DNA of 47,772 bases from a virus (taxonomy: Duplodnaviria; Heunggongvirae; Uroviricota; Caudoviricetes). Both the position numbers and the translations under genes were made by a program. The stretch lies in IMG/VR virus record IMGVR_UViG_2698536610_000001; one strand, given 5' to 3'. Shown here one piece after another: positions 1 to 22,015 of the stretch; position 1 is the first letter of the stretch, and every line of letters begins with the position of its first letter. The notes beneath the pieces were generated by a model. The model was not told the DNA's origin, did not search any database, and saw nothing but the letters and a program-made list of their open reading frames with translations.

Positions 1-1
1 A

Positions 2-1568: not shown

Positions 1569-1640
1569 CGATTTCTTTATCTCTTACATCAGACGAGCGC
1601 CGGTTGCAGAATACCAGTCACAACCGGCGACAGTTGAACA

Positions 1641-4112: not shown

Positions 4113-4205
4113 TTTATTTTAACCTCATGACAGATTTAAGGATGAATAAATCCCTGCCATTGCTGGCATATAAGAATGAAACCGGATATTTATTACGGAA
4201 CTGTT

Positions 4206-4397
4206 TTAAAGACCTGCCGGGATTTCGATATTATCCTGGTGAATAACTTTATCGACCGGGTAACAGTTACCGGGAATTTTCTGTTCGGTTGCTGCAGTCA
4301 TACACTCCTGCATTGTCCTGTGAACACTGACTGCAATATCAACTGGCTCTCCGGAAACAAGAAAAACTGTCAGAACAAGCGCAAATGCTGAATTCAT
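4206..4397 (-). CDS. ydfD: YdfD-like small single-TM lysis protein
   Basis: 63-aa ORF MNSAFALVLTVFLVSGEPVDIAVSV… with N-terminal hydrophobic helix; matches remembered Qin YdfD; stop/start overlap with dicB; start set at the internal ATG of the 81-aa track ORF. Confidence 0.7.
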   Translation of the reverse strand: MNSAFALVLTVFLVSGEPVDIAVSVHRTMQECMTAATEQKIPGNCYPVDKVIHQDNIEIPAGL

Positions 4398-4582
4398 TGT
4401 GCACATCTTTTTGGCATCAGACGTAAACGAGCCAGCATTGAAACAATGCATATTTTATTTAATAGCTCCCGTTCTTGTTTTCTCTTGTTAATGGCATCTT
4501 CAGTAAATACTGGGTTACTGATAGTGACACCAATTTCAAAACAACCTTCAGACGTATTAACGTTTGGTAATAACGTTTTCAT
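4394..4582 (-). CDS. dicB: Cell division inhibitor DicB
   Basis: 62-aa ORF MKTLLPNVNTSEGCFEIGVTISNPVFTEDAINKRKQERELLNKICIVSMLARLRLMPK…; matches remembered DicB; GAGGA Shine-Dalgarno upstream; dicF immediately upstream on the same strand. Confidence 0.8.
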   Translation of the reverse strand: MKTLLPNVNTSEGCFEIGVTISNPVFTEDAINKRKQERELLNKICIVSMLARLRLMPKRCAQ

Positions 4583-4751
4583 TATCGCGTCCTCAACAAT
4601 GAATTTTGTGATGCGGTGCCTGGTGCCTCCAGGTGACGTTAACCAGTTAACAATTAACGCCGGATACAGAGAATCCACCCATAACACTGTTTTTGGTTTT
4701 AACTGTTCCGCGTGCGCTCAGCCGCATTCACCACATCACAAAATTCACTTT

Positions 4752-4809
4752 AAAAAGGGCGGCAGAGCAGTCACGGAGTAAAACTGATACCGCCAAACGT
4801 CACCAGAAA
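4752..4809 (-). ncRNA. dicF: DicF small RNA (ftsZ-targeting antisense sRNA) with 3' hairpin and U-tract
   Basis: Minus-strand sequence TTTCTGGTGACGTTTGGCGGTATCAGTTTTACTCCGTGACTGCTCTGCCGCCCTTTTT is readable directly; GGCGG…CTGCCGCC stem followed by a T-run; lies between ydfC and dicB as in Qin. Confidence 0.75.
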
Positions 4810-5121
4810 ATTGATAACAGAGGGCGTTGCAGCGGGGTTGTCACTTAAGCGTATGGTCAACCTGACAACCCGGTGTCCTCAACGGGGGAAGGAATAACCC
4901 CGCCATACTTACCGCCGCGCCATTTCGCGGATTGCCACAACCGGAAGCGCACGGTCGACGAAAATTTAACGACAGGCTATCTATGAACCAGCTACCTCGC
5001 CGTGCGCTTTCGCGTTATGGTCTGACTTTTCAGGGAAATATCCTTTCAGTAAACTGTCAGTGCTGGATGCTCACCCGTGTCCGGCACACGCACTCCACCT
5101 CACCCGTGGAGAACTCCTTTA

Positions 5122-6309: not shown

Positions 6310-6540
6310 ATGCTTAAAACTGACGCTCTTTTGTATTTCGGTTCAAAAACAAAACTTGCACAAGCAGCAGGTATTCGTTTGGCTTCGCTTTATAGCTGGA
6401 AAGGGGATTTAGTTCCCGAAGGTCGCGCGGTGCGTCTACAGGAGGCATCTGGCGGGGAGCTTCAGTATGATCCCAAAGTTTATGATGAATATCGTAAGAC
6501 GAAGCGGGCGGGGCGGTTGAACAATGAAAATCACTCCTGA
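6310..6540 (+). CDS. dicC: DicC-type Cro-like regulator
   Basis: 76-aa ORF MLKTDALLYFGSKTKLAQAAGIRLASLYSWKGDLVPEGRAVRLQEASGGELQYDPKVYDEYRK… matches remembered DicC; first gene of the rightward operon. Confidence 0.8.
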   Translation: MLKTDALLYFGSKTKLAQAAGIRLASLYSWKGDLVPEGRAVRLQEASGGELQYDPKVYDEYRKTKRAGRLNNENHS

Positions 6541-7045
6541 ACAGGCTCGTGAGGCTCTGGATGCCTGGATATGTCGACCAGGAATGACACAGGAGCAGGC
6601 GACGATATTAATCACTGAAGCATTTTGGTCTTTGAAAGAGCGCCCGAACATCGATGTTCAGCGTGTCACAGATGAAGGTGGCGCGGTTGATCAGCGAGCG
6701 CTTGGCGTTAATCGAGTGAAGATATTCGAACGCTGGAAGGCTATTGACACCAGGGATAAGCGTGAAAAGTTCACGGCGCTAGTGCCTGCAATTATGGAGG
6801 CTATCCGGATTAGTGATTTCAGGTTGTATCGTGAAATTAGTGACGGGAAAAGCATTACGTACATGATCGCCGGGTTAAACAAAGAATATGGCGATGTGGT
6901 GGAGTCCGGACTGCTTTTTGCTGATCCTGCCGTAGTGGATCGTGAAACTGACGAACTTATAGAAAAAGCAATTGCTTTCAAACTTGCGTATCGACAGCAA
7001 TACCAACAAAAAGCTGGATGGAATTATGAGCCTTCTTTTTGCTGA
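6524..7045 (+). CDS. Conserved phage early protein in the cII position (possibly YdaT-family)
   Basis: 173-aa ORF overlapping the dicC 3' end by 17 nt; family assignment is tentative and from memory. Confidence 0.45.
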   Translation: MKITPEQAREALDAWICRPGMTQEQATILITEAFWSLKERPNIDVQRVTDEGGAVDQRALGVNRVKIFERWKAIDTRDKREKFTALVPAIMEAIRISDFRLYREISDGKSITYMIAGLNKEYGDVVESGLLFADPAVVDRETDELIEKAIAFKLAYRQQYQQKAGWNYEPSFC

Positions 7046-7991
7046 ACGCCCACTGGTTATAAACACACAGCTTGCGATGAAGATTGGCTTAAATGAAGCC
7101 ATTGTGTTGCAGCAGTTGCATTACTGGTTGAGAGATACTAATTCCGGCATGGAATGTGATGGTGTTCGCTGGATTTACAACACAACGGAACAATGGCTGG
7201 AACAGTTCCCATTCTGGTCAGAGTCAACTTTAAAGCGCGCGTTTGCAAGTCTGAAAACGCTGGGGCTTTTGCGTTGTGAAAAGCTCAATAAATCAAAGCG
7301 CGATATGACCAATTTCTACACGATCAACTATGGGAGCGAGCTTTTAGATGGTGGCAAATTGAGCGAATCCATCGGTTCAAAATGCGCCGCTCCATCAGGT
7401 CAAAATGACACGATGGAAGAGGTCAAAATGAAACGCTCCATTGGTTCAAAACGACCCAATGTCATCGGGTCAAAATGGCCTGATGATCTTACAGAGAATA
7501 CAACAGAGATTACTACAGAGAATAAAAACACTTTTCGTCCGGAAGCTTCGCAACCGGACCCGCAGACGACTGAACAGGATTTTTTAACCCGGAACTCCGA
7601 CGCGGTTGTGTTTAGTGCGAAAAAACGCCAGTGGGGTAGCAGGGAGGATTTGGCGTGTGCGCAGTGGATCTGGGGGCGGATCGTGGGTCTCTACGAACAG
7701 GCAGCCAGTGATGATGGCGAGATCATGCGACCAAAAGAGCCTAACTGGACTGCCTGGGCCAATGACGTGCGCACAATGCGGATGCTGGATGGCAGAAGCC
7801 ACAGACAAATTTGCGAAATGTTTGGTCGGGTACAGCGAGATCCATTCTGGGTAAAAAACATCATGAGCCCGTCAAAGCTTCGTGAAAAATGGGATGAACT
7901 GGTCATCCGTCTGGGGCGTTCGTCTGTACAGCGTTGTGTGAATCATATTTCTGAACCGGATACAGAAATTCCGCCTGGTTTCAGGGGATAA
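7026..7991 (+). CDS. Replication initiator (O-like replisome organiser) with internal origin iterons
   Basis: Start at the internal ATG (MSLLFAERPLVIN…) overlapping the upstream stop; the protein carries IGSK repeats encoded by the iteron array; no separate P/DnaC-like loader follows. Confidence 0.6.
   Translation: MSLLFAERPLVINTQLAMKIGLNEAIVLQQLHYWLRDTNSGMECDGVRWIYNTTEQWLEQFPFWSESTLKRAFASLKTLGLLRCEKLNKSKRDMTNFYTINYGSELLDGGKLSESIGSKCAAPSGQNDTMEEVKMKRSIGSKRPNVIGSKWPDDLTENTTEITTENKNTFRPEASQPDPQTTEQDFLTRNSDAVVFSAKKRQWGSREDLACAQWIWGRIVGLYEQAASDDGEIMRPKEPNWTAWANDVRTMRMLDGRSHRQICEMFGRVQRDPFWVKNIMSPSKLREKWDELVIRLGRSSVQRCVNHISEPDTEIPPGFRG
7374..7478. repeat. Array of five iteron-like direct repeats (GGTYCAAAAYG), putative phage origin
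   Basis: Repeats at about 7374, 7398, 7421, 7443 and 7468, spaced 22-25 bp; followed by A+T-rich ACAGAGAWT repeats at 7490-7530; lies inside the initiator gene, as lambda ori lies inside O. Confidence 0.6.
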
Positions 7992-8031
7992 GTGTTGATT
8001 TCAGGTCATGAGGTAATTTTAAGGGGGACTT

Positions 8032-8463
8032 GTGGCAAAAGTTTTTACACAAGAAGAGCGGGAAAAAATTAAAGGGCAGGTGGTGGAACTCGTGCGCCAG
8101 AGCGGTCGTGAGACGCTACGGCAACTGGAAGCTAAAACAGGTGCGACAAGATATCTGATGAGCGTTCTTGCCAGAGAGCTGGTTGCCAGTGGCGATGTAT
8201 ACAACTCCGGCTACGGGTTATTCCCCTCTGAACAGGCGCGTAAGGACTGGCAAAACGCCCGCAAAAAACTCTCGAGGGCAAAGATGAAGAAAACAGCTGT
8301 GGTTGATCCGGACCTTATCTGGTCGTTACCTGATGGAGAAATACGCCGCTACGACAGTCGCCTAAACATAATCTGTCGCGAGTGCCGGAAGACTGAAGTT
8401 ATGCAGCGCATACTCGCATTCTATCAGGGAAATGCTCGATATCTATTGAAGCGACGAGATTAA
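8032..8463 (+). CDS. Hypothetical phage protein (possible DNA-binding protein), GTG start
   Basis: 143-aa basic ORF after the replication gene; start codon uncertain. Confidence 0.4.
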   Translation: MAKVFTQEEREKIKGQVVELVRQSGRETLRQLEAKTGATRYLMSVLARELVASGDVYNSGYGLFPSEQARKDWQNARKKLSRAKMKKTAVVDPDLIWSLPDGEIRRYDSRLNIICRECRKTEVMQRILAFYQGNARYLLKRRD

Positions 8464-8786
8464 AGAGCATTAGTTCAGATGTGAATTGACATTTTCGTGG
8501 CACAAGATTAGCGCTAGCGTGGTCGTTTGGTTTGTGCCAAGAGCGGATAATGCTGACATTCCTATGCACTAATTAACGCAGAGCAAGCCAGTTAGTTGGT
8601 TATGGAAGTAAGTTGTAGCCAGCAACTATCACCATCGGAGATATTTAGGGGGATGCACTCTAAGTTGTAGTTACTTTATAATGTCACTTTCAAAGCGGAA
8701 GCTTGTACAAAAGATGGATAAGCTTTTGTATAGTATGGGATTCAAGAATCACTAAAAGATGACAACAGTACTTACAGGATGTGGCT

Positions 8787-9026
8787 ATGATCCGAATTAT
8801 GATTAGAATATTTTCTTTGACATTCGTTGCTTGCGCTGGCTTTGCTGCATATCACTTCAATAGTGTGCCATTGATGTTCACTTCTGGTAGCTTTCTTGTA
8901 ACATTTTTAGGTACATTTATTGTTAATAAAAAAAGTTCAGGGCATACAATAATTCAAAAAAGCGGTAGCCATTCAAAAAATAATCAGACGGTCGTTTTTG
9001 GAAATAATGAAAACAAGCGAGGCTGA
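8787..9026 (+). CDS. Small membrane protein with two predicted TM helices (cassette gene A)
   Basis: ATG 8787 with AGGA upstream; hydrophobic stretches IFSLTFVACAGFAAY and FTSGSFLVTFLGTFIV; stop 2 nt before gene B; AT-rich. Confidence 0.5.
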   Translation: MIRIMIRIFSLTFVACAGFAAYHFNSVPLMFTSGSFLVTFLGTFIVNKKSSGHTIIQKSGSHSKNNQTVVFGNNENKRG

Positions 9027-9028
9027 TC

Positions 9029-9625
9029 ATGGTTGGTGTTACTCAAAGGTCAGGGAATTACTCACGTAATGTGCAGGTGGTTGTCGATTCTAACTCTGTT
9101 GATATTATAAAGTCTCCATCGATTTTTATGGATCTTGTTGGTATTTTAGTTGATTCGAATGTTATTGATCCTCGTACAAACAATGACTACGAGCCATATG
9201 ATATTGAGAATAAAATAGACTTCAATGATGTTATAAAACATAGAGAACGTATTGAAGGGTTCTATCTATATTCTTCGATGATAGATAAAGCGTATGAAAC
9301 ATTAAATGAAAGTATGCCTACTGCTAAGGAAACGGCACTGAAAAGCATCAATTCACGATATCTTGATTGTCAAGGAGATTTATTGCTTAAACATAGAGAA
9401 GCGTATAAGAGCTGCAAGGATGCTCAGGAACGGAATAATTTAAAGATTCAATTGGTAAGAGAGTTTGCAGATTGGATAATAGACAGTGTAATAGAGCACA
9501 TCATTAAGAAATGCTTAAATTCTCTTATGGCAATGAATTACACAAGCGAAGAAATCGAATGCCATGCTTCTTTTATCGTTTATCATGCATTCGTAGAGTG
9601 TAAGATTCTGGAAAAACCAATATGA
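9029..9625 (+). CDS. Hypothetical 198-aa protein (cassette gene B)
   Basis: Tightly coupled to A upstream and C downstream (ATGA overlap); no motif recognised. Confidence 0.55.
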   Translation: MVGVTQRSGNYSRNVQVVVDSNSVDIIKSPSIFMDLVGILVDSNVIDPRTNNDYEPYDIENKIDFNDVIKHRERIEGFYLYSSMIDKAYETLNESMPTAKETALKSINSRYLDCQGDLLLKHREAYKSCKDAQERNNLKIQLVREFADWIIDSVIEHIIKKCLNSLMAMNYTSEEIECHASFIVYHAFVECKILEKPI

Positions 9626-9858
9626 TTATCTCTGATGTAACAAAACCAAGCCAAACCTTGTATTACCTGGGGGCTCGGTTATTAGAATGCATGAGTTCAA
9701 ATGCTTATTCGTATGTTGATATTATAGACTTGTATAATGAATTCAAATCTAAAAATAACAACTCTTCATTCACGCAATATATTTACACTTTAAATTGGCT
9801 ATATTTATTAGGCCTGGTTGATGCTAACGAAAATGGAGATTTGATATTATGTTTTTGA
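9622..9858 (+). CDS. Hypothetical 78-aa protein (cassette gene C)
   Basis: Overlaps B by 4 nt and D by 10 nt; small, probably helical. Confidence 0.5.
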   Translation: MIISDVTKPSQTLYYLGARLLECMSSNAYSYVDIIDLYNEFKSKNNNSSFTQYIYTLNWLYLLGLVDANENGDLILCF

Positions 9859-11573
9859 AACGGCTAATAGTCAGTTCTTTCAGGCTTGGAGTGATTCGTG
9901 ATATCGAATTTCACATTGGCGTTAATTTGATTATTGACCGAAACACCTCCAGCAAAGAGCAAACTGGAAATGGTGTGGGAAAAACTACTGTATTAAGAGC
10001 TTTAGATTTTTGTTTTGGAGCAGAACAACTGAATTTTTATACCGATCCTGAATTCAAGAAAGAAAATTCGGTTATAAAAAATTATTTGATAGAGAACGAG
10101 ATTGAGTTTTGTTTAATTCTCACAAAAGATTTGAATAATAAAACTGCACCAGTAATAAAAATTAAGCGTAAAATTACATCTGAGACTAATAAAACGAAGG
10201 TTATAGCCTCAATAAATGAAGAGTCCTATACGAAGGCTAAAGATTTCAACGAGGCTTTAAAAAGAACATTATATCTTGATTCCGCGATAAAACCGACCAT
10301 ACGAGAGATTATGGGACGTGTTATTCGAAATACGCATGACAAGATGTCGAACGCATTAAAAACGATAAAAATGGGTTCTAATACACAATATGAAACGTTA
10401 AATCTGTTTATGTTTGGGTTCGGTAACTCACAGATTCTGGATGAAAAACAGTCAGTGACTAAAGCCTATAAACTGGCGAAATCCGATTATGAAGTAATTA
10501 CTCGCCATCGCTCAAAGAATGCTTTGGAACAAGCTATTGCAATTATAAATAGAGATATTATAGCACAAGAAGAGTTAATTTCTAATTTTCAAGTGGCAGA
10601 CTCTTATAATGATATGCTTGCTGAGTTAAATGAGTTAAAAATTAAAATTAGTGAAGTTTCTATCATACTATCATCTTTGGAGTTTAAGCAAAAATTAAAC
10701 GATAAGGCTATACTAGATCTGGAAAAAAGTCATGAAAATATAAATACACTAGATCTACAGAAGTTGTACTTAGAAGCAACTGATCGGTTAGGTAACTTAA
10801 ACAAAGAGTTTACTGAGCTACTTTCGTTTCATAATAAAATGCTTGTAAAAAAAGCTGAGTTTATTAGAAAACAAATGCAGCCAGTGCTGCAAGAAATTTC
10901 CAAATATAAAGATGAACTAAATAACTTATTGACTCAAGAATCAGAGCTTTTAAAGAGTTTGTCTTCGCATGGGACATTGGCAGACCTGCAAATAATGCAA
11001 AAAAAATTAAATTCATTATTTGAAGAAAAAGGTGGGCTTGAAGCTGGACTACTTCAAATCCAAGAGATGGAGAACAACTTTAATATACTGAAAGCAAAGT
11101 TTAATGATGTGTCAGATAGATTAAAATCTAAACTTGACGATTTTAACAAACGTCTTGCGCTATTCAATTCCTATTTTTCTTTATATACTAAAAAATTATA
11201 TCAGGATGAATATATTCTTTCCTATAAAGATTCCTCCGGTTCTTTCGTTTTTACCATTGAACCTTTAGGAACTTTGCTCACATCAGGTAATCAGGGAGAA
11301 GGAAAAAAGAAAGCCCAGGTTGCCTCTTTAGATTTTGCCTATTTATCTGTCCAGGAGTCTTTAGAAGCCAGAACACCACGTTTTATAGCTCATGATGGAA
11401 TTGAGGCAATTCATGTAAATCAAATAAATAAGTTATTCGAGATAGCTTCGGGGATTAATGGTCAATATATATTGGCTATTCTTAAAGACAAGTTGGAGAA
11501 TATTGATCAAGACTTCATCAATAATAGTGTTGTGCTTGAGCTTGGGGAGGACGATAAGTTTTTTAGGCTTTAA
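9849..11573 (+). CDS. ABC-type P-loop ATPase with long central coiled coil (SMC/Rad50-like architecture) (cassette gene D)
   Basis: Walker A GNGVGKTT at aa 40-47 (nt 9966-9989); heptad-rich helical region roughly aa 220-440; C-terminal signature-like TSGNQGEG, Walker-B-like RFIAHD and a following His. Confidence 0.7.
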   Translation: MFLKRLIVSSFRLGVIRDIEFHIGVNLIIDRNTSSKEQTGNGVGKTTVLRALDFCFGAEQLNFYTDPEFKKENSVIKNYLIENEIEFCLILTKDLNNKTAPVIKIKRKITSETNKTKVIASINEESYTKAKDFNEALKRTLYLDSAIKPTIREIMGRVIRNTHDKMSNALKTIKMGSNTQYETLNLFMFGFGNSQILDEKQSVTKAYKLAKSDYEVITRHRSKNALEQAIAIINRDIIAQEELISNFQVADSYNDMLAELNELKIKISEVSIILSSLEFKQKLNDKAILDLEKSHENINTLDLQKLYLEATDRLGNLNKEFTELLSFHNKMLVKKAEFIRKQMQPVLQEISKYKDELNNLLTQESELLKSLSSHGTLADLQIMQKKLNSLFEEKGGLEAGLLQIQEMENNFNILKAKFNDVSDRLKSKLDDFNKRLALFNSYFSLYTKKLYQDEYILSYKDSSGSFVFTIEPLGTLLTSGNQGEGKKKAQVASLDFAYLSVQESLEARTPRFIAHDGIEAIHVNQINKLFEIASGINGQYILAILKDKLENIDQDFINNSVVLELGEDDKFFRL

Positions 11574-11859
11574 GATTTGTAATTTGATAGATATGTAGAT
11601 ATCATTTTTCTCGCTCAAAACTGACAGTCAGATTTGAGCGAATTGCTTATGTAAGTATTTCGCAGAATCATGCCATTTATATTTATTAGAACATACGTAC
11701 TTTAAATGTGGGAGGCTGTCATGTTGGTTCTTAAATGTTCGCTGACTATTGCGGTGGTGCGGGCAATTTATTGTTCTGTTATTCTTATGGATCGCCTTTC
11801 TGACTGATTTCATATTGGCGAGATAACGGGAGTTAAGTAGAATGCCTGCGGGTGCTTGA

Positions 11860-12018
11860 GGCTATCTGCCTCGGGCATGAATACCAACGGCAGATAGAGA
11901 AAAGCCCCAGTTAACATTACGCGTCCTGCAAGACGCTTAACATTAATCTGAGGCCAATTTCATGCTAGACACATGTAGGTTAGCCTCTTACGTGCCGAAA
12001 GGCAAGGAGAAGCAGGCT
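11860..12018. promoter_or_regulatory. hok/mok mRNA leader; expected location of antisense Sok RNA (not mapped)
   Basis: Inferred from hok/sok locus organisation; mok ORF begins at 11962. Confidence 0.35.
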
Positions 12019-12174
12019 ATGAAGCAGCAAAAGGCGATGTTAATCGCCCTGATCGTCATCTGTTTAACCGTCATAGTGACGGCACTGGTAACGAGGAAAG
12101 ACCTTTGCGAGGTACGAATCCGAACCGGCCAGACGGAGGTCGCTGTCTTCACAGCTTACGAACCTGAGGAGTAA
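12019..12174 (+). CDS. hok: Hok/Gef family type I toxin (mok in-frame extension from 11962)
   Basis: MKQQKAMLIALIVICLTVIVTALVTRKDLCEVRIRTGQTEVAVFTAYEPEE; the 70-aa upstream extension MLDTCRLASYVPKGKEKQA… resembles Mok; GGCGAGGGA-GAAA-TCCCTCGCC stem-loop at 12182-12203. Confidence 0.8.
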   Translation: MKQQKAMLIALIVICLTVIVTALVTRKDLCEVRIRTGQTEVAVFTAYEPEE

Positions 12175-12244
12175 GAGACCCGGCGAGGGAGAAATCCCTC
12201 GCCACCTCTGATGTGGCAGGCATCCTCAACGCACCCGCACTTAA

Positions 12245-12270
12245 CCCGCTTCGGCGGGTTTTTGTTTTTA
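12245..12270 (+). terminator. Rho-independent terminator after hok
   Basis: CCCGC-TTCG-GCGGG hairpin followed by TTTTTGTTTTT. Confidence 0.65.
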
Positions 12271-12390
12271 TTTTCAACGCGTTTGAAGTTCTGGACGGTG
12301 CCGGAATAGAATCAAAAATACTTAAGTAGCGCGCAGGGAGAAGAGGGATGGTCCCTTAAAGGGGAGAGCTAATTATCCGGAAGGATTCTG

Positions 12391-12654
12391 ATGATGAACA
12401 TGATGATGAACATCGAAGAACTGCGTAAAAATTTTTGTGAAGATGGCCTCTATGCTGTGTGCGTTGAAAATGGAAATCTTGTTAGTCATTACCGCATTAT
12501 GTGTTTGCGAAAGAATGGGGCTGCGTTAATTAATTTTGTGGATGGTCGAGTGACAGACGGATTTATCTTGCGCGAAGGTGAGTTTGTCACTTCATTACAG
12601 GCACTGAAAGAGATCGGAATAAAAGCTGGCTTTTCTGCTTTTTCAGGAGAATAA
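12391..12654 (+). CDS. Hypothetical phage protein (87 aa)
   Basis: GGAAGGA Shine-Dalgarno; unusual MMNMMMN start; no motif recognised. Confidence 0.45.
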   Translation: MMNMMMNIEELRKNFCEDGLYAVCVENGNLVSHYRIMCLRKNGAALINFVDGRVTDGFILREGEFVTSLQALKEIGIKAGFSAFSGE

Positions 12655-12720
12655 ACTCATCTACAATCTTGCGCGGGGCTGAACTCCCGCTGAGTAACAC
12701 CGTGCCACCGGAGAAAACCG

Positions 12721-12999
12721 ATGGCACGCAACGCAAAATATTACAATTCTGATAATTCGCCCGTTCTTGCCTGCACGCACGGGCGGTATTCTCACGCATT
12801 CAAGTCTGAATGGTTCCAGCACCCTCCATGCACTGAAGAGCAGGCTGAATGGATAATTCAGTGTTACCGCAGGCGCGGATACGAGGTTAAGAAAGCCCTT
12901 AGTCTCGACTACCGTCACTGGATAATCTCAGTCAGATTGCCTTACTCCGAACGCCCACCGCGTCCGTCCCGTACATTCCAGCAACGCATCTGGAGGTAA
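12721..12999 (+). CDS. Hypothetical phage protein (92 aa)
   Basis: GGAGAAAA SD; stop is 1 nt before the DUF968 gene. Confidence 0.45.
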   Translation: MARNAKYYNSDNSPVLACTHGRYSHAFKSEWFQHPPCTEEQAEWIIQCYRRRGYEVKKALSLDYRHWIISVRLPYSERPPRPSRTFQQRIWR

Positions 13000-13000
13000 C

Positions 13001-14050
13001 GTGCGGGTATTACTTCGACCTGTTCTGGTACCGGAACTCGGGCTGGTGGTCGTTAAGCCGGGCCGTGAATCCATGCCGGTATTCCACAATACCCGGGTAC
13101 TGGTGGAGCCGGAACCGAAAAGCATGCGTAATCTGCCGTCCGGGGTCGTTCCTGCCGTTCGCCAGCCGCTGGTGGAAGACAAAACATTGCTGCCGTTTTT
13201 CAGTAATGCACGGGTAATTCGTACTGCTGGTGGTGCTGGTGCATTGTCTGACTGGCTGTTGCGCCATATTAAATCCTGCCAGTGGCCACACGGCGATTAT
13301 CATCACAGCGAAACCGTTATTCACCGTTATGGTACCGGCGCAATGGTGTTGTGCTGGCACTGCGACAACCAGCTGCGTGACCAGACATCCGAATCACTCG
13401 AGCAACTTGCTCATCAAAACCTGTCAGCATGGATGATTGACGTCATCGGTCACGCAATAAGCGGTACGCAGGAGCGTGAATTATCTCTGGCTGAATTATC
13501 CTGGTGGGCGGTCCGCAATCAGGTGGCGGACGCGCTACCGGAAGCGGTATTACGTCGCTCGCTGGGATTACCAGCGGAAAAAAACTGCTCGGTGTACCGC
13601 GAAAGCGACATCGTACCGGGAGAGCAGACCGCCACCAGCATATTGAAACAGCGCACAAAAAATCTTGCACCGTTGCCTCACGCCCACCAGCAACAAAACC
13701 CATCACAGGAAAAGACGGTGGTAAGCATCACCGTTGATCCAGAGTCTCCGGAATCTTTCATGAAGCTGCCTAAACGTCACCGGTGGGTTAAGGAGAAATA
13801 CACACGCTGGGTTAAGACACAGCCGTGTGCTTGCTGCGGTATGCCAGCCGACGATCCGCATCATCTGATTGGTCACGGGCAGGGCGGAATGGGAACCAAA
13901 GCACATGATCTCTTTGTTTTGCCTTTGTGCAGAAAGCATCACGACGAGTTGCATACGGATACCGTGGCATTTGAAGAGAAGTATGGCTCCCAACTGGAGC
14001 TGATTTTTCGATTTATCGATCGCGCGCTGGCAATTGGTGTGCTGGCCTAA
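13001..14050 (+). CDS. DUF968 family protein (YdfU-like) with C-terminal Cys/His cluster
   Basis: 349-aa ORF, same length as remembered Qin YdfU; C-terminal [18 protein letters not shown]…CRKHHDELH suggests an HNH/zinc-finger-like motif; GTG start assumed. Confidence 0.65.
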
Positions 14051-14067
14051 TTTTGTGGAGTAAGTTG

Positions 14068-14445
14068 ATGCGTGATATTCAGATGGTTCTTGAGCGTTGG
14101 GGGGCATGGGCGGCTAATAATCATGAAGATGTGACCTGGTCGTCCATTGCCGCCGGTTTTAAGGGATTAATTCCTTCAAAAGTAAGATCTCGTCCGCAAT
14201 GCTGTGACGATGACGCGATGATCATTTGTGAATGTATGGCTCGCCTGAAAAAAAACAACAGCGATTTACATGATTTATTGGTGGACTATTATGTCGGCGG
14301 CATGACTTTTATGGCGCTTGCACGTAAGCATGGGCGATCTGATTGTTGGGTTGGCAGGATGCTCCAGAAAGCTGAGGGCGTAGTGGAGGGCATGCTGATG
14401 GTGTTGGATCTCCGATTGGAGATGGATGCTGATTGTTCGAAATAA
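14068..14445 (+). CDS. Late-gene antiterminator Q (small QuuD/phage-82-type)
   Basis: [26 protein letters not shown]…; about 125 aa; followed by a strong intrinsic terminator (tR' analogue). Confidence 0.65.
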
Positions 14446-14543
14446 TTAAAGGAAAAGTTGCTGTCTGATTTTCATTAGTCTAACATTTTAAATGTTGGAA
14501 TCGCAACGTAGTTATTATCATATAACAGCTTGTTTCCTGATTT

Positions 14544-14572
14544 AGCCAGCCTCCCCAAAGGCTGGTTTTTTT
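14544..14572 (+). terminator. Intrinsic terminator, tR'-like, downstream of Q
   Basis: AGCCAGCCT-CCCCAA-AGGCTGG followed by TTTTTTT. Confidence 0.6.
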
Positions 14573-14600
14573 CTAATAAGTATCATTTCGGGTGGGGATT

Positions 14601-15125
14601 TTATTGTTTAACCCATAATAGTTCATTGACATTGAATCCCAACTTTTGAGCGGTACGCACATAGTCTGCTTTTACATTATCTGGAATAGTTTGGGTCCTT
14701 GCCAGAATCCATAGGTATTCTCTGTTCGGACCACTGACAAGAGCATACTTATACTCATCATCCAGTTTGATTACATTATAGCCACCATAGAAGGGGCCAA
14801 AAAACGAAACTTTCAACGCTGCAGTTTTAGTATCTCCAGTAAAGTATGCTTTACCTTCGCTCTCGCTCCATTTGTTTTTCGTTGGATCGTATCCACGGTT
14901 AAGTACGCGAATCCCTCCGTCGTTCCGTTTTTCATAAGTAGCGCTGACCTGTTCCAGACCACGTTCGAACCAGTTCTCGAGGCGAGCTATTTCATACCAT
15001 TTTCCGAGGTAGCGGTTGGCGTCAAAATTTGTAATCGGCTGCACACCTTTAGGTGGTGTCGGGGCCTTACATGCTATAAGAGTGAAAGAGAGTGCAATGC
15101 CAGTCAACACAGGCCATAACTTCAT
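14601..15125 (-). CDS. Bacterial lipocalin (Blc-like outer-membrane lipoprotein), prophage cargo
   Basis: 174-aa ORF; signal peptide with lipobox LIAC; lipocalin motifs …RYLGKWYEIARLENWFERGLE… and KVSFFGPFYGGYNVI match remembered Blc closely. Confidence 0.85.
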   Translation of the reverse strand: MKLWPVLTGIALSFTLIACKAPTPPKGVQPITNFDANRYLGKWYEIARLENWFERGLEQVSATYEKRNDGGIRVLNRGYDPTKNKWSESEGKAYFTGDTKTAALKVSFFGPFYGGYNVIKLDDEYKYALVSGPNREYLWILARTQTIPDNVKADYVRTAQKLGFNVNELLWVKQ

Positions 15126-15317
15126 AATAAATCCTGTACTTTTGATAGTTGAGAGTAAGTATGAAAGATAGATGAGTACGACCGATCACTTAAAGAACTT
15201 TCCTACTATATTAGGAATAGTCAATAACAGAAAAATTGTCAGTGATGAAGCCAGAAAGGCAATTTAGTCCGTGCACTACAAAGTTTATGTGTTAATGAAT
15301 TAATCAAGGGGGAGGAA

Positions 15318-16277
15318 ATGATAAAAAAACCTGTGATTGGGATCAGCGGTTGTTTGGGCGGTTCTGCTGTTCGTTTTGATGGTGGTCACAAAAGAGATGA
15401 CTTTTTAATGGACAAATTAGTGGAATGGGTAACATTCAGACCAGTATGTCCGGAAATGGCTATAGGGCTGCCAGTTCCGCGTCCTGCTCTACGACTTGTG
15501 CGCTCGAAGCAAGGAAATATACGGATGTGTTTCAGTCACGACCAGAATGAGGATGTGACAGAGAGAATGACAGAGTTTAGTCGTTCTTATATGGACAAAT
15601 TAAAGGATGTATCGGGGTTTGTGGTTTGTGCTAAATCTCCCAGCTGTGGCATGGAGCGCGTGCGTGTCTATGATGAAAATGGTAATCGAGGTCGTAAAGA
15701 TGGAGTGGGACTATTTACGAGCACTTTGATGGAAAAGTTTTCCTGGCTACCGGTTGAAGAGGATGGGCGATTACATGATCCAGTGCTTCGTGAGAATTTT
15801 ATTGAAAGAGTTTTTGCTTTGCATGAGCTCAATCACCTTTACAAGGAGAAATTATCAAGAAGAGAGTTATTAGCTTTTCATAGTCGTTATAAGCTTCAGT
15901 TGTTGGCGCATAGCCAGGCAGGCTATAAAGATATGGGACCATTTGTGGCTGCAATACACGAGTGGGCGGACCTTGAATCATACTTTGAGGTGTATCGTGA
16001 TAATCTGATGGCGATTCTCAGAAAACCAGCATCACGTAAAAATCACACGAATGTGCTGATGCATATACAGGGGTATTTTAGTAATTACTTAAGTACACGC
16101 CAGCGTAAAGAGTTGAGCGAGGTTATACTTAACTATCGTTCTGGCACATTGCCTCTTCTTGCGCCGTTGACTCTGCTGAAGCATTATCTGGGTGAGTATC
16201 CTAATGATTACTTGCTTACACAGAATTACTTCGATCCCTATCCGGAAGAACTGGCTTTAAGGCTGATGGTGAATTAA
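15318..16277 (+). CDS. DUF523/DUF1722 (YbbK/YbgA-like) fusion protein, prophage cargo
   Basis: 319-aa ORF; N-terminal VIGISGCLGG…CPE and C-terminal helical domain resemble the YbgA-type family; assignment from memory. Confidence 0.55.
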   Translation: MIKKPVIGISGCLGGSAVRFDGGHKRDDFLMDKLVEWVTFRPVCPEMAIGLPVPRPALRLVRSKQGNIRMCFSHDQNEDVTERMTEFSRSYMDKLKDVSGFVVCAKSPSCGMERVRVYDENGNRGRKDGVGLFTSTLMEKFSWLPVEEDGRLHDPVLRENFIERVFALHELNHLYKEKLSRRELLAFHSRYKLQLLAHSQAGYKDMGPFVAAIHEWADLESYFEVYRDNLMAILRKPASRKNHTNVLMHIQGYFSNYLSTRQRKELSEVILNYRSGTLPLLAPLTLLKHYLGEYPNDYLLTQNYFDPYPEELALRLMVN

Positions 16278-16756
16278 CTGTATGCGATATCATCTGAAAG
16301 TGATGAGTTCCTGCATGCAGGATATTTACAATCGTAAAAACTACACTATGATACCCATAGTGTCAGTTTGTATAAAAATCCTGTTCACGCTGAAGAAAAT
16401 ATTGAGATGCAATTTAATGTTGGTAAATATACCAGCCCCAAAATATTTTATTCAATCTGTTTTTATATAAAGATATTTCAAGTGAATATTAAGAGCATAT
16501 AATATTATTATTGCACGCAGCTATTATAATATAACAGATTAGTTTAATGATTTTTTGCGAGTTAAACACATGCTTTTATAGTTGTGATGCAATGAGATTT
16601 TCCTTATTGTTGAACTGGCGAATATTGATTATCCACCTATACTTACCTGGTGTAACCCCAATGATATCAGGTGGATAATATGCCATACATATGTTCTATG
16701 GTGATGCCTCTAATTAGTTGAATCTGATGTATAATACGGGCTTTTGAGGTTATCTC

Positions 16757-17029
16757 ATGGCCAGAGTTAATATTCATTGTCCCCGTTGTCAGTCAGCTCA
16801 GGTTTACCGCCATGGTCAGAACCCTAAAGGCCGTGACAGATTTCGCTGCCGTGACTGCCACCGTGTGTTTCAGCTCACTTATACTTATCAAGCACGTAAG
16901 CCGGGTATGAAAGAGCTGATAACTGAAATGGCCTTTAATGGTGCCGGGGTTCGCGATACCGCCAGGACAATGAAAATTGGTATTAACACCGTCATCCGGA
17001 CTTTAAAAAACTCGCGCCAAAGCGAATAA
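16757..17029 (+). CDS. insA: IS1 InsA (transposition regulator / N-terminal part of InsAB')
   Basis: MARVNIHCPRCQSAQVYRHGQNPKGRDRFRCRDCHRVFQLTYTYQ… with zinc-finger and HTH as in IS1 InsA. Confidence 0.85.
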   Translation: MARVNIHCPRCQSAQVYRHGQNPKGRDRFRCRDCHRVFQLTYTYQARKPGMKELITEMAFNGAGVRDTARTMKIGINTVIRTLKNSRQSE

Positions 17030-17451
17030 CTTCTTCGCCTGTTGCCCATGCTGATGTGGCGCTTATCTGCGAGCTTGATGAGCAATAGAGCTACGTTGGC
17101 AGTAAAGCCCGGCAACACTGGCTCTGGTACGCGTACAACACCAAAACAGGCGGTGTACTGGCCTACACTTTTGGTCCCCGAACCGATCAAACGTGCCGGG
17201 AGCTACTGGCACTGCTTACACCCTTCAACATCGGCATGCTGACCAGCGATGACTGGGGCAGCTATGGCCGGGAGGTGCCGAAGAATAAGCATCTGACCGG
17301 CAAAATATTCACCCAACGCATTGAGCGTAATAATCTGACGCTACGCACCCGCATTAAGCGGTTGGCTCGTAAAATAATCTGCTTCTCACGCTCAGTTGAG
17401 ATCCACGAAAAAGTGATCGGAGCGTTTATCGAAAAACACATGTTCTACTAA
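17030..17451 (+). pseudogene. insB: IS1 insB frame interrupted by an in-frame amber codon
   Basis: The InsB frame (-1 relative to insA) reads …ALICELDEQ*SYVGSKARQHWLWYAYN…; TAG at 17086-17088 replaces the Trp of the remembered DEQWGYVG motif; the distal part (17236-17451) is intact. Confidence 0.55.
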
Positions 17452-17470
17452 TTGGATGCACTACCATCAC

Positions 17471-17847
17471 TTGCATGTCTTGCTATCTTATCTTCAGAGA
17501 AAATAGTGCAAAGGTTTTTATTTGGGTGTCTTAATAGTTTAGGAAGTAAAGTTAAGGCTATTATCCACAAGGATATATCTGCAACATGGAGACTTTGTGA
17601 TATATCTTCAAGACTGTGCCTGAGTGAAAGTTTGTTAAAAAGAAAATTAAAACACGAAGGCTTATCATTTGGTAAACTAAATCTTGAAGAGCGAATGGTG
17701 ATGGCGGAAAGCTTATTAAGCTACAATTTATATTCTGTTGGGAAAGTTGCTGAGATATGCGGTTATGAAAATACGTCATATTTTGTAAGTGTTTTCAGAA
17801 GATATTTTGGTGTTCCTCTCCACAAATATTCATCAAGATTTTTTTAG
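17471..17847 (+). pseudogene. AraC-family regulator, C-terminal HTH fragment (5' end replaced by IS1)
   Basis: The ORF reads out of the IS1 right end; only an AraC-type HTH domain of about 125 aa remains (…YENTSYFVSVFRRYFGVPLHKY…); AT-rich. Confidence 0.5.
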
Positions 17848-18053
17848 AAAAACACATGATGTAACGTGATGCGATTTAATGATTTTGTAATTTTCGTATT
17901 TGATAATTTTATGATGCTTTCAGCTACGCCAGAATAATCGCTGGCGTTTTTCTTTTTGAATAGATGTTCAGGCCTTACGCTAATGTAACTTCTATACCTT
18001 TCCCTCTTCGTTCCGAACCGTGTACACCATCCGTTATTTGCGGAGGTGAGGCT

Positions 18054-18269
18054 ATGAAATCCATGGACAAGTTAACAACGGGCATTGCCTACGGCACCTC
18101 CGCAGGCAGTGCTGGCTACTGGTTTTTACAGTGGCTTGATCAGGTCAGTCCATCACAGTGGGCTGCTATTGGTGTGCTGGGAAGTCTGGTTCTGGGCTTT
18201 CTGACTTACCTGACGAATCTGTACTTCAAAATAAGAGAAGACAAGCGTAAAGCTGCGCGGGGAGAGTAA
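18054..18269 (+). CDS. Class II holin (phage 21 S-type pinholin) with dual-start motif
   Basis: [71 protein letters not shown]; two TM segments; GGAGGTGAG Shine-Dalgarno; Met1/Met4 starts. Confidence 0.85.
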
Positions 18270-18273
18270 TTCA

Positions 18274-18618
18274 ATGACTCAAAACTATGAACTGATTGTG
18301 AAAGGGATCCGCAATTTTGAGAATAAAGTTACGGTAACTTTAGCGTTACGGGACAAAGAACGCTTTGACGGTGAAATTTTTGACCTGGACATCTCGCTGG
18401 ACCGTGTTGAAGGTGCCGCGCTGGAGTTTTATGAGGCAGCAGCCAGAAGGAGCATCAGACAGGTCTTCCTGGATGTTGCTGCCGGGTTATGTGAAGGGGA
18501 TGAGCTGTCGCCGGAAAAGCGCCCCATAATTTTAGAGGCGCAGAATGTGTGGATAACCTACAAAGGAAAGCTACCGGGAAGAATTACTGGTTCTCTGAAG
18601 ACTCCGCCGAAATGGTAA
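18274..18618 (+). CDS. YdfR-like (DUF1327) protein inserted between holin and endolysin
   Basis: 114-aa ORF starting 5 nt after the holin stop; position and N-terminus match remembered Qin YdfR. Confidence 0.5.
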   Translation: MTQNYELIVKGIRNFENKVTVTLALRDKERFDGEIFDLDISLDRVEGAALEFYEAAARRSIRQVFLDVAAGLCEGDELSPEKRPIILEAQNVWITYKGKLPGRITGSLKTPPKW

Positions 18619-18856
18619 TTTCACCAGCATATTTTTCTTCCAGTAATACCGCCAGCCACTTGAAAGAATTTTGTTGTTGCTGGGACCATTTGGGGTTGAG
18701 TGATTCAAGCTGGAGCGATGCCAGTGTTGGTTGCATTTGTTCCTTGGGAATTGAGAATGCCAGATATGAAAATGCGACAGTAAGGGCATTTACATCATCC
18801 CGAAGCTTGGAAATGCAGTCGAGCAACTCCTGTAGAGAAATGGTGCTATTGTCCAT
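18584..18856 (-). CDS. Hypothetical 90-aa protein, antisense within the lysis cassette
   Basis: ATG preceded by a strong SD (AGAGAGGA, about 6 nt); convergent with and overlapping the ydfR-like 3' end by about 35 nt; no family recognised. Confidence 0.35.
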   Translation of the reverse strand: MDNSTISLQELLDCISKLRDDVNALTVAFSYLAFSIPKEQMQPTLASLQLESLNPKWSQQQQNSFKWLAVLLEEKYAGEITISAESSENQ

Positions 18857-18961
18857 AAACAATCCTCTCTATTGTATTTAACTATTCCTTGCCTGATTCA
18901 ACAGGCCGGGACAGATAAACATATCCAGGGTTCAGAAACCGATAAATCCTGATAAATATCC

Positions 18962-19504
18962 ATGAACGTAAAAATCAGATACGGCCTGTCGGCTGCCGTT
19001 CTGGCACTGATTGCCGTCGGTGCGCCTGCGCCTGATATTCTCGACCAGTTTCTGAATGAAAAAGAAGGTAACCACACAACGGCATACCGCGATGGTTCCG
19101 GCATCTGGACCATCTGTCGGGGTGCCACGGTGGTGGATGGAAAACCCGTTTTTCCCGGTATGAAACTGTCGAAGGAAAAATGCGACCAGGTTAACGCCAT
19201 TGAACGGGATAAGGCGCTGGCATGGGTGGAGCGCAATATTAAAGTGCCACTGACCGAACCACAGAAAGCGGGTATAGCGTCATTTTGTCCCTATAACATT
19301 GGCCCCGGTAAGTGTTTCCCGTCGACGTTTTATAAGCGGCTGAATGCCGATGATCGTAAGGGGGCATGCGAGGCGATTCGCTGGTGGATAAAAGATGGTG
19401 GGCGTGATTGCCGCCTGACAAAAGGGCAGAAGAATGGCTGTTATGGGCAGGTCGAGCGGCGCGATCAGGAAAGCGCACTGGCGTGCTGGGGGCTGGAGCA
19501 ATGA
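18962..19504 (+). CDS. SAR endolysin (T4-lysozyme-like, phage 21 R-type)
   Basis: N-terminal Ala/Gly-rich signal-anchor (LSAAVLALIAVGAPAP); catalytic E-x8-D-x5-T triad in NEKEGNHTTAYRDGSGIWTICRG. Confidence 0.85.
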   Translation: MNVKIRYGLSAAVLALIAVGAPAPDILDQFLNEKEGNHTTAYRDGSGIWTICRGATVVDGKPVFPGMKLSKEKCDQVNAIERDKALAWVERNIKVPLTEPQKAGIASFCPYNIGPGKCFPSTFYKRLNADDRKGACEAIRWWIKDGGRDCRLTKGQKNGCYGQVERRDQESALACWGLEQ

Positions 19505-20037
19505 AAATTAATCCGGATCTTATAGGCGTTGTCGTTATTGCTGGCCTTTCGGTCGCTCTCGTCAAGAGTTGCTCTCACGCCAGTAATCTTCAGAGCGATA
19601 ACGACGTTCTGCGAAGTGACAACTCTATGCTGGGGCAGGTAATCGCCACCCAGGCATTCAACTTCAATCGATTCAATCAGGTTGCAGAACATGCCAACAG
19701 TCTTAACTCCCTGATCGACACCAGCACCGAAAAAACCGTAATCGAATACCGGGAGATTCTCCGCCGTGAAAAAACCTGTGATCTGCCTGTTCCTGCTGAT
19801 ATCGCTGGTGGGTTGCTCGAATACACGTACCGTTTACGTGCCAGCGCCATGCACACCGATACCGGCAGACCTAATGAAGCCTATGATCGTACCGCTACCA
19901 CCAGCTCAATGACCTACTGCCAAGCTGTCTTGTGGATTAAGCCGCTACTGGCGTTGATAGAAAAAGGAAATAATAATTTTTCGAGTATTCGTGAAATTGA
20001 TGAGTTGCGTTACAGACCATCTGAGCATGGCCAGTAA
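19501..20037 (+). CDS. Rz i-spanin
   Basis: ATG overlaps the endolysin stop; N-terminal TM (LIGVVVIAGLSVALV) then helical periplasmic domain; embedded Rz1 frame. Confidence 0.8.
   Translation: MKINPDLIGVVVIAGLSVALVKSCSHASNLQSDNDVLRSDNSMLGQVIATQAFNFNRFNQVAEHANSLNSLIDTSTEKTVIEYREILRREKTCDLPVPADIAGGLLEYTYRLRASAMHTDTGRPNEAYDRTATTSSMTYCQAVLWIKPLLALIEKGNNNFSSIREIDELRYRPSEHGQ
19766..19912 (+). CDS. Rz1 o-spanin lipoprotein, embedded in the +1 frame of Rz
   Basis: Hand translation: (GTG)KKPVICLFLLISLVGCSNTRTVYVPAPCTPIPADLMKPMIVPLPPAQ; lipobox LVGC; Pro-rich; GGGAG SD 10 nt upstream. Confidence 0.7.
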   Translation: MKKPVICLFLLISLVGCSNTRTVYVPAPCTPIPADLMKPMIVPLPPAQ

Positions 20038-20111
20038 GGTTGCAGGAAATTTAAAATCTGGCGATGAAATTTAATATTAGAAATTCATTGCCTAGTGAGA
20101 TTAATAATGGG

Positions 20112-20157
20112 CATCCCTTTGTGACGATAAGCTTTAACACATTCACAAAGGGATATT
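20112..20157. terminator. 12-bp perfect inverted repeat between convergent Rz and the 230-aa gene (possible terminator)
   Basis: ATCCCTTTGTGA…(loop)…TCACAAAGGGAT; no clean U-tract, so terminator function is uncertain. Confidence 0.35.
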
Positions 20158-20205
20158 TAATATAGGGTGGTTAATTCCCACTTGCTGTGGTGTTTAGGGG
20201 GTAAT

Positions 20206-20898
20206 TCAAATCTTATCTAACTCATTATAGGCTTCGATAATAAAAATTCTGATTTTAATAAGGCATGATTCAATGAAAGGAATTACTTCATGGTCATTCC
20301 CATGGAATCTTATTTTTTTCTCTTCGGTAATGACTATGTTTAAAGGTACACCATTACCACTTCTTTGTAATTTCCCATTTTCGAAAGTAAAGTCTTCTAA
20401 TTTTTTGCCATTGATGTGGTTGTTTTTAAAGAGAATTTTTGCTGAGCTTCCTGCTGTGATTAAACCAAAACCATCTACGCTCACACTTAGGTCTTTAACA
20501 GAACTCTCTTCTCTTAAGGGGATTGGTTGTCTGTGCTTTACTTCATTAGTGAGATTACACATCATTTCCAACCAAGATTCGCCAGTGTGATAATCCTGTA
20601 TAGAAGTAAAAATTTTATATAATGGAGAAGATGATGGTGGGTTTATTTTTAGCGTCTTTGAGAAAAATTTATCAATAAACTCTTTTTTTCCGTAAGGGAA
20701 ATATATTTTGGGGCGCTCATCATTACTGCGTGGAGAAATATATTTATCATAGGTATCATTAGCGAGATACTCTAAGGAACTTCGTAAGTTTTCCAAAATA
20801 GCTTTGACTTTTACAGGCTTGATATGCTGTGTCTGTCTCATTATGTCAAGACTTTCTTCAACTTCTTGCAATAAGTCTAACGAGCCTTCTCTAGACAT
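20206..20898 (-). CDS. Hypothetical 230-aa protein in an AT-rich island (moron)
   Basis: Long ORF in strongly AT-rich DNA where chance ORFs are unlikely; opposite to phage late transcription, in the position lambda uses for bor; no motif recognised. Confidence 0.6.
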   Translation of the reverse strand: MSREGSLDLLQEVEESLDIMRQTQHIKPVKVKAILENLRSSLEYLANDTYDKYISPRSNDERPKIYFPYGKKEFIDKFFSKTLKINPPSSSPLYKIFTSIQDYHTGESWLEMMCNLTNEVKHRQPIPLREESSVKDLSVSVDGFGLITAGSSAKILFKNNHINGKKLEDFTFENGKLQRSGNGVPLNIVITEEKKIRFHGNDHEVIPFIESCLIKIRIFIIEAYNELDKI

Positions 20899-21479
20899 AC
20901 AGGTAATTCTCCTTTATGAATTTTCAACATGTTATAACTAATAATATATTTATCATATAACTGTATGAATAAATTGTGAGATTAGTAATGCAAGTTTCTA
21001 TCCATAGTGTTCTCTAAGTACCCGCTTCCATCATGTTGTTACGGACGGTATGGCTAAAACAAAGCACCTGAAGTTAAACGTTCTGAACTTTATGCTCGTT
21101 GAGCATATGAATTATCTGTAACCCGATGCGCTGGTTGTGGTTCACATTGATGGTCGTAATCAGCAGCGGTGGTGCCTGATGGCATGCAACTTCTTACTTA
21201 TAAAACTTCGTATGGAATTGTTGCCATAACGAGCCCAGCTTAGCAGTTTTTAATGGGTCCTCCCGGCAGTGTGTCCTGCCACGGGGCGGGAGCGTCGCGG
21301 AAAAAGGCTAGTTTTTGCATTTCCATGGCGGCGGCAGCATGTTTGGTAATTTATTGATAATTAAAAGTTATTTCTCTTTTCACCTGTACAATATTTTTTT
21401 CTCCCTGTCATTAGACCAGTTTGCAATTAATTGAAATATATAAATAAACATGATTTTCACCTGCCAGATGGAGTTGCTT

Positions 21480-22007: not shown

Positions 22008-22015
22008 GAGGAATA

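Follow-up and report, generated by a model that had tools for sequence, protein, structure and literature searches.

A complete hok/mok/sok type I toxin–antitoxin module of the hokD/hokW subfamily in a Qin-type lambdoid prophage

The locus lies within a 47,772-nucleotide stretch of DNA (IMG/VR record IMGVR_UViG_2698536610_000001; hereafter the window), which was identified as a lambdoid E. coli prophage of the Qin type. The prophage is bounded by int and the split ydfJ gene and carries a full structural set alongside dicB/DicF, cI/cro-like regulators, Q, and genes for replication and lysis. The hok module occupies the early-right region, between the replication genes and the Q antiterminator. 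Its toxin ORF, hok (hokD; 12019–12174, plus strand), encodes a protein of 51 amino acids, MKQQKAMLIALIVICLTVIVTALVTRKDLCEVRIRTGQTEVAVFTAYEPEE, which was matched by the Pfam family HOK_GEF (PF01848; E = 1.2e-23; bit score 82.9, cutoff 22) and by PHROG 251, ‘MokW-like host killing’ (2.8e-33), as expected for a Hok/Gef-family membrane toxin of ~50 amino acids. By protein comparison its residues are those of E. coli K-12 HokD (WP_000813254.1, 100%), and it shares 92% amino acid identity with HokW. The Hok sequence, described as clear in the original prediction, was borne out by these matches; a chance ORF was rejected as a reading of the frame, and none of the inactivating mutations that the prediction had named as evidence to the contrary were found in hok. 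No PADLOC model matched Hok, and the NCBIfam Hok models matched below their own cutoffs; both searches were uninformative on family membership. As a separate observation, the Tyr47 codon of hok, UAC, lies within UACG (12157–12160), the TadA A-to-I editing motif, and the equivalent position of hokD mRNA is reported to undergo editing (Tyr to Cys) that enhances toxicity (bioRxiv 10.1101/2025.08.07.668861).

Upstream of hok and overlapping it in the same frame is mok (11962–12174, plus strand), an ORF of 70 codons that shares the hok stop codon, so that the predicted in-frame Mok extension was recovered from its ATG at 11962 onward. Each start has its own Shine-Dalgarno sequence on the plus strand: GAGG at 11950–11953, 8 nt 5′ of the mok ATG and within the Sok-complementary region, and GGAG at 12006–12009, 9 nt 5′ of the hok ATG. 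The latter is conserved, and UGAGGC at the former is invariant among hokD-type loci. The same geometry was found for mokW of phage 933W and in most other loci. An in-frame mok of 68–70 codons is the rule in hokD-, hokW-, hokC- and Photorhabdus-type loci, and the in-frame extension is therefore normal for the subfamily; the R1 type is offset by +1.

A hok mRNA promoter was located at 11815–11843 on the plus strand (−35 TTGGCG, 11815–11820; 17-nt spacer; −10 TAGAAT, 11838–11843), with 9/12 matches in a consensus scan. Its −10 hexamer sits 7 nt 5′ of G11850, which aligns with hok mRNA 5′ ends; in other hok loci a −10 hexamer is likewise visible 6–7 nt 5′ of the G of tac, the translational activator element, and homology to 933W and to a further hok locus (L010) starts at 11814–11815. 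The predicted full-length hok mRNA extends over ~420 nt (11850–12269, plus strand), beginning with tac and closing with the T run of the terminator, its 5′ end being inferred from the start of the Rfam model together with the tac alignment and its 3′ end from the intrinsic terminator (12243–12269, plus strand; stem at 12243–12260, followed by the T run), which is identical in K-12. The original prediction had placed the locus at 11860–12270. The locus itself stood, but its start was set slightly short, as the transcript begins from ~11850 and the functional module covers ~11815–12269, ~45 nt further 5′.

The full-length transcript was predicted to fold with a minimum free energy (MFE) of −170.6 kcal/mol (z = −6.66 against shuffles). 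In this fold, tac (11850–11861, plus strand; GGGUGCUUGAGG) pairs over 12 bp with fbi, the fold-back inhibition element (12224–12236, plus strand; CCUCAACGCACCC), with a duplex energy of −21.5 kcal/mol, and this long-range pairing, which would close the full-length mRNA, is found both in the predicted fold and by covariation. Directly 3′ of tac, a 5′ leader hairpin is formed at 11862–11897 (plus strand; CUAUCUGCC / GGCAGAUAG). The upstream complementary box, ucb (11983–11991, plus strand; GCCUCUUAC), contains CUCUUAC (11985–11991), which forms an MFE helix with GUAAGAG of the downstream complementary box, dcb (12171–12177, plus strand), a box that spans the hok UAA stop. The mok AUG region pairs with 12204–12223, and a small hairpin, UGCC-GAAA-GGCA (11993–12004, plus strand), lies between ucb and the hok Shine-Dalgarno and overlaps the Sok −35; its variants in other loci, GACC/GGTC, CGCC/GGC and GCGC/GCGC, preserve the pairing. 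The 3′ UTR holds a 9-bp hairpin at 12182–12190/12195–12203 (plus strand; GGCGAGGGA / UCCCUCGCC), and this hairpin and the terminator account for the 3′ stem-loops noted previously. GCCUC in ucb is complementary both to GAGGC of tac and to GAGGC of the mok Shine-Dalgarno, and the competition of these two for ucb underlies the published refolding model (PMC9841398). The boxes on which the alternative folds of the R1 model depend are thus present, by pairing and by compensatory variants. When artificially 3′-truncated mRNAs were folded, the canonical tac–ucb stem of the R1 model was not reproduced as the MFE structure and a local 5′ hairpin formed instead; the refolding step is accordingly taken from the literature.

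The Sok antisense RNA, which the original prediction had left unmapped, could be placed from its homology to sokW of 933W, an RNA that is annotated and has been studied experimentally and whose misc_RNA feature maps to 11970 → 11900 on the minus strand of the window. The RNA, of ~71 nt, would consist of a free 5′ tail (11970–11962; 9–14 nt), a long hairpin (11961–11899) and a U-rich tail, with a fold of −30.3 kcal/mol (z = −5.27) predicted for a 75-nt antisense RNA, and by complementarity it spans both the mok Shine-Dalgarno and the mok AUG. Its promoter (12005–11977, minus strand) comprises −35 TTGCCT (12005–12000), a 17-nt spacer and −10 TAACCT (11982–11977); read on the minus strand, the start near 11970 falls ~7 nt past the −10. 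Promoter, hairpin and U tail together make up a putative convergent Sok gene complementary to the mok Shine-Dalgarno and start. The promoter is identical throughout to that of 933W/Sp5 sokW, in which mutation of the −10 in a ‘pro-less’ construct (primer YO-421) silenced sokW and released HokW toxicity (PMC8621323). Of 83 hok loci compared, almost all of those whose leader is intact have this layout, as −35 TTGCCT, TTGACC or TTGCGC, a spacer of 17–18 nt (17 nt in 48 loci, 18 nt in 17) and −10 TAnnCT. Minus-strand promoter prediction had been proposed as a check, and here the outcome was divided: a simple sigma-70 scan of that strand found no Sok promoter, whereas homology to sokW did. The scan missed it because TAACCT has 3/6 consensus matches and falls under the scanner threshold; since the validated sokW −10, also TAACCT, falls under the same threshold, the scan result was not taken as absence.

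Rfam RF01794 matched at 11850–12024 on the plus strand (115.3 bits, E = 1.2e-25), and the signal at the locus, taking together the Hok match, RF01794 and the transcript fold, is far beyond chance. Although RF01794 is named ‘sok antitoxin’, it matched the hok-sense strand in the window and at two further loci (L003, 1520–1694; L004, 300–476), those being an R1-type locus and 933W, in the latter of which the annotated sokW lies inside the match on the opposite strand. A match in the sense of hok means that the model describes the hok mRNA leader and not Sok, and it follows that annotation pipelines using RF01794 will assign Sok to the wrong strand and overstate its length, a misplacement by automated annotation that deserves to be flagged.

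Site-by-site variation was compared among 18 distinct hokD-type loci. The most variable segment was 11955–11970, which encodes the 5′ recognition tail of Sok (on the mok side, the Shine-Dalgarno-to-AUG spacer and first mok codons), and in which 13 of 16 sites varied; in tac and fbi the corresponding counts were 0/12 and 1/13. Variability of the Sok 5′ tail would fit a scenario in which co-resident copies diversify in Sok specificity.

For analysis of covariation, 80 hok loci from other species were retrieved by protein similarity, using a four-member Hok alignment, so that retrieval was blind to the RNA elements. In a non-redundant set of 56 loci, a 14-nt tac probe found fbi in 46, at 45–57 nt past the hok stop, with an energy of −21.1 kcal/mol for a tac with its own partner against −11.9 kcal/mol with shuffled 3′ regions. 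This probe replaced a comparison of own and cross partners by RNAduplex over flanks of 120–130 nt, which was uninformative (diagonal −61.2, off-diagonal −60.6) because the duplex ran along the whole segments. The variable position of the tac–fbi helix is U-A in 22 loci, C-G in 21 and non-Watson-Crick in 3 (C-G in 23 and U-A in 22 by a second count). In an alignment of 47 sequences, spanning many enterobacterial genera, 84.7% of cells in the window helices were paired, compared with 39–49% for slid partners, a contrast that is inflated because the structure was derived from the fold of the window itself. The double-sided changes, seen in 17 pairs, are independent of that derivation. The covariation score exceeded that of 500/500 shuffles.

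Individual helices could be followed in the same alignment. The leader hairpin (11862–11897; helix 3) had 97% of cells paired over the 47 loci, with three double-sided changes, and pairs of the Sok hairpin covary (for example AU 24 / GC 19 and GC 23 / AU 21). The ucb–dcb helix (helix 6) was paired in 86.6% of cells, with compensatory variants such as CUUAU with AUAAG and CUUAG with CUAAG, and the 3′ UTR hairpin (12182–12203; helix 8) had four pairs with double-sided changes. The inner half of tac–fbi (helix 2) reached 72% in the formal pair count, an alignment artefact, since a one-base bulge in the window shifts the register relative to Photorhabdus and R1 types. Separately, copies of hok with exactly the E. 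coli or an R1-type sequence turned up in assemblies labelled Veillonella, Acinetobacter, Xanthomonas, Ferruginibacter, Streptomyces and Oscillibacter (L020, L030, L037, L072, L073 and L074). Most of these contigs are short (275 bp to ~5 kb; that from the Veillonella MAG is 22.9 kb), and these hok copies are probably enterobacterial or plasmid contamination.

The closest characterized relative is hokW-mokW-sokW of the Stx2 phages 933W and Sp5 (VT2-Sakai), with 93.3% nucleotide identity over 416 nt (28 differences). Both have a 51-aa toxin, an in-frame 70-aa Mok, the same Sok promoter hexamers and spacing, the same tac and fbi sequences, and a lambdoid prophage host. They differ in one residue of the 19-aa Mok leader and four C-terminal Hok residues, and in seven substitutions in the Sok region, six of which fall within the 5′ recognition part. 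Directly past fbi 933W diverges and lacks the terminator sequence of the window; its hokW is found close to the right-hand end of that phage record, beside the large L0134 gene, whereas the window copy is located between the replication genes and Q.

Comparison with hok/sok (parB) of plasmid R1, proposed originally alongside chromosomal hokD, gave a common order of elements, from promoter, tac, leader hairpin and Sok target through mok, ucb and hok Shine-Dalgarno to hok, dcb, 3′ hairpin and fbi. A convergent Sok promoter stands at the same position in both (TTGCGC-17-TATCCT in R1, TTGCCT-17-TAACCT here), and both match the Rfam and Pfam families. R1 Hok is, however, ~40% identical to the window Hok, R1 mok is offset by +1 and terminates 4 nt short of the hok stop, tac/fbi of R1 has C-G where the window has U-A, and the R1 system is carried by a plasmid and not by a prophage. 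The hokC Hok sequence, used here as a search seed only, is 82% identical to that of the window. The hokC/mokC (gef) loci (L027–L035) also have an in-frame mok, with tac GGGUGC and fbi GCACCC, but their leader is shorter (tac at −147 from the ATG as against −169), their Sok promoter has −35 TTGACC and an 18-nt spacer, and they are located in the core chromosome.

With hokD (relF) of the K-12 Qin prophage the window shares the Hok protein, the 3′ UTR, the terminator and the downstream neighbours rem and ydfU, and both prophages belong to one family integrated at ydfJ. The identical protein and the same position relative to rem/ydfU might suggest a remnant of the K-12 kind, that is, a toxin ORF with no promoter, mok or sok that is expressed by read-through alone. 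K-12 homology begins only at 12005, however, and 5′ of that point the K-12 gene is cut off by a relBE segment, 14 nt before the ATG, leaving K-12 hokD with no hok promoter, tac, mok, ucb or Sok. The window has 155 further leader nucleotides (11850–12004) together with the promoter, mok, tac, ucb and the Sok gene, and RF01794 matched it and gave no match to the K-12 hokD locus. Comparison of the sequences rules out a remnant here: the full leader is retained, no relBE genes lie 5′ of hok in the window, and the window copy represents the complete ancestral form, which at least 3,827 of 5,426 complete E. coli genomes also have.

Upstream of the module is an AT-rich cassette (8780–11575) annotated as an ABC-three-component (ABC-3C) system, and the original prediction had suggested that the two make up a combined accessory island. 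Read in this way, hok/sok and the cassette would be one co-inherited accessory or defence island with a joint function, Hok acting for instance as effector or addiction module. The two are adjacent and on the same strand, with 445 nt from the DUF2326 stop to the hok ATG and no intrinsic terminator predicted between them, and of the 17 cassette-bearing genomes, 16 have the same junction to hok. The cassette DUF2326 ATPase matches the PADLOC candidate defence family PDC-M68B (2.8e-41), and R1 hok/sok is reported, as cited in PMC8621323, to lower T4 plating. Distribution argues strongly the other way. In a set of 5,426 complete E. coli genomes, 3,827 carry the hok module at a coverage of at least 80%, or 4,721 if any coverage is allowed, compared with 17 for the cassette. 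Of these 17 copies, 15 are at least 99% identical and the other two 98.6% and 92.9%, a pattern that indicates a single lineage and hence, in all probability, a single acquisition. GC content changes from 31–36% across the cassette to ~51% across hok, and mosaic breakpoints fall between the two: homology with prophages carrying other cargo resumes at 11679–11831 and in several ends at 12261–12269, so that mosaic boundaries coincide with the hok promoter and terminator, and the 140–170 nt 5′ of hok (from 11679 or 11711) are common to prophages with other cargo.

The space 5′ of hok was itself found to be a variable cargo slot (8433–11831), between the DUF977 gene and the hok promoter, in which ABC-3C is the present occupant. 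In the eight loci sampled for slot diversity, other strains carry unrelated cargo in its place, namely relBE/flxA/ydfV, an integrase fragment, AbiH with IS3, QueH, Paa with fimbrial genes, or hypothetical genes. In a published census, hok was enriched in prophages (23% against 5% expected) and not enriched near defence systems (12% observed against 9.4% expected; bioRxiv 10.1101/2025.08.07.668861). The combined-island idea is largely refuted by distribution, and joint function with the cassette is very unlikely; by distribution, GC jump, breakpoints and slot exchange, hok was rejected as a component of the ABC-3C (DUF2326 / PDC-M68) operon. Adjacency to a defence-like cassette does not imply a functional unit. 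Judged from these comparisons, the hok module belongs to the conserved backbone beside a variable cargo slot and not to the cassette.

We therefore conclude with high confidence that 11815–12269 forms a hok/mok/sok type I module, complete and self-contained, that falls within the hokD/hokW subfamily, is resident in a Qin-type prophage and not a component of the cassette. The elements, their complementarity and their conservation come from the sequence; for the regulatory dynamics we drew on plasmid R1 (PMC9841398) and phage Sp5 (PMC8621323). The sigma-70-like promoter would drive synthesis of the ~420-nt hok mRNA, in which tac can pair with fbi, and the mok start region and ucb can pair with 3′ sequences, dcb among them. 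The convergent minus-strand promoter between the mok and hok starts may yield a Sok RNA of ~71 nt. By analogy, full-length hok mRNA would be closed and inert under the tac–fbi lock; slow 3′ trimming would remove fbi, allowing the mRNA to refold, with tac capturing ucb, and opening the mok ribosome-binding site. Abundant, short-lived Sok would bind there and block translation of mok, and with it the coupled translation of hok, the duplex being cut by RNase III. Were Sok synthesis to stop, the stable processed hok mRNA would be translated and Hok would permeabilise the inner membrane. The 3′ processing, the instability of Sok relative to stable hok mRNA and the RNase III cleavage of the duplex have been described for R1 (PMC9841398) and in part for hokW (PMC8621323).

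As to biological role, hokW-sokW provides the nearest experimental guide. HokW is toxic and is neutralised by sokW expressed from its own promoter, a protection abolished by mutation of the −10; on RecA-dependent induction sokW is lost and HokW is produced earlier than endolysin, and phage release falls by half when hokW-sokW is deleted, a deletion with no effect in normal growth (PMC8621323). Because the prophage of the window appears structurally complete, a similar role is the likeliest, that is, prophage-linked killing that would speed lysis and release after induction, and/or prophage stabilisation. Prophage stabilisation and abortive infection are the alternative roles. Among the points that sit less comfortably with our preferred explanation are the Sok −10 TAACCT, which is weak by consensus, and the different phage location of hokW.

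Chromosomal hokA, hokB and hokC have been reported, in work summarised in bioRxiv 10.1101/2025.08.07.668861, to be unable to mediate post-segregational killing, and for this reason the biological role of the module may be weak or conditional. Taken further, the module could be structurally intact and yet biologically inert, a selfish or decaying chromosomal hok/sok whose toxin, as proposed for hokA/B/C, is never released naturally; the non-consensus Sok −10 and the normal growth of the hokW-sokW deletion would fit such an account. All regulatory elements have nevertheless been kept, and tac and fbi are (nearly) invariant among the 18 hokD-type variants while adjacent sequence varies, which argues for purifying selection. 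As hokW-sokW, 93% identical, is moreover active on prophage induction, we regard inertness as doubtful. A more speculative extension of the active module, to which we give a low probability, is that hok/sok forms the fixed right-hand anchor of a Qin/lambdoid cargo-exchange slot, from the DUF977 end to the hok promoter, with defence and fitness genes exchanged there (ABC-3C in the window; relBE, AbiH, QueH and Paa in other strains), and that read-through upon induction silences the convergent Sok promoter. Since hok is sense-oriented inside the early-right transcription unit, induction-driven read-through could collide with the Sok promoter. If so, the collision would explain mechanistically the rapid loss of sokW on induction, and Hok would be an induction-timed lysis helper that also stabilises adjoining cargo.

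As a hokD/hokW-type module, the locus is an ordinary complete copy of a kind already known. Systems of the hok/sok type are among the best studied of type I toxin–antitoxin systems, and the hokD/hokW subtype has been characterized experimentally and already has annotations in Stx phages and in thousands of E. coli genomes, so that the locus carries little weight as a discovery. Its use is as an intact reference, with every element mapped, for what K-12 hokD has lost.

Several observations were made on neighbouring sequence. Directly 5′ of the hok promoter is a small hydrophobic ORF (11706–11807, plus strand), (MWEAV)MLVLKCSLTIAVVRAIYCSVILMDRLSD, with a likely start at ATG 11721 and GGGAGG at 11710–11715, for which no Pfam, PHROG or NCBIfam match was found. 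Its frame is open at 63–69% amino acid identity in three prophages with different upstream cargo (L005, L006 and L018), and ~500 E. coli genomes share the stretch at ~84% nucleotide identity; it could be a small membrane peptide of the hok-flanking backbone. On the 3′ side of hok, the rem gene (12391–12654, plus strand) is a mosaic insert, skipped in three other prophages (L006, L007 and L009), in which homology stops at 12261–12269 and resumes at 12704. Rfam matches were also obtained to the DicF sRNA in the dicB region (4757–4808, minus strand; 76.7 bits) and to IS009 near the tail-fibre end of the prophage (44517–44715, plus strand; 212 bits). Unlike NZ_CP151161, its closest full-length relative, the window contains no tRNA genes, and the Q/lysis region (14043–22112) is mosaic with respect to that genome, with only patchy matches of 84–91%; the early region (1–5030 and 6403–14043) and the late region (22112–47772) are collinear with it at 93–99%.
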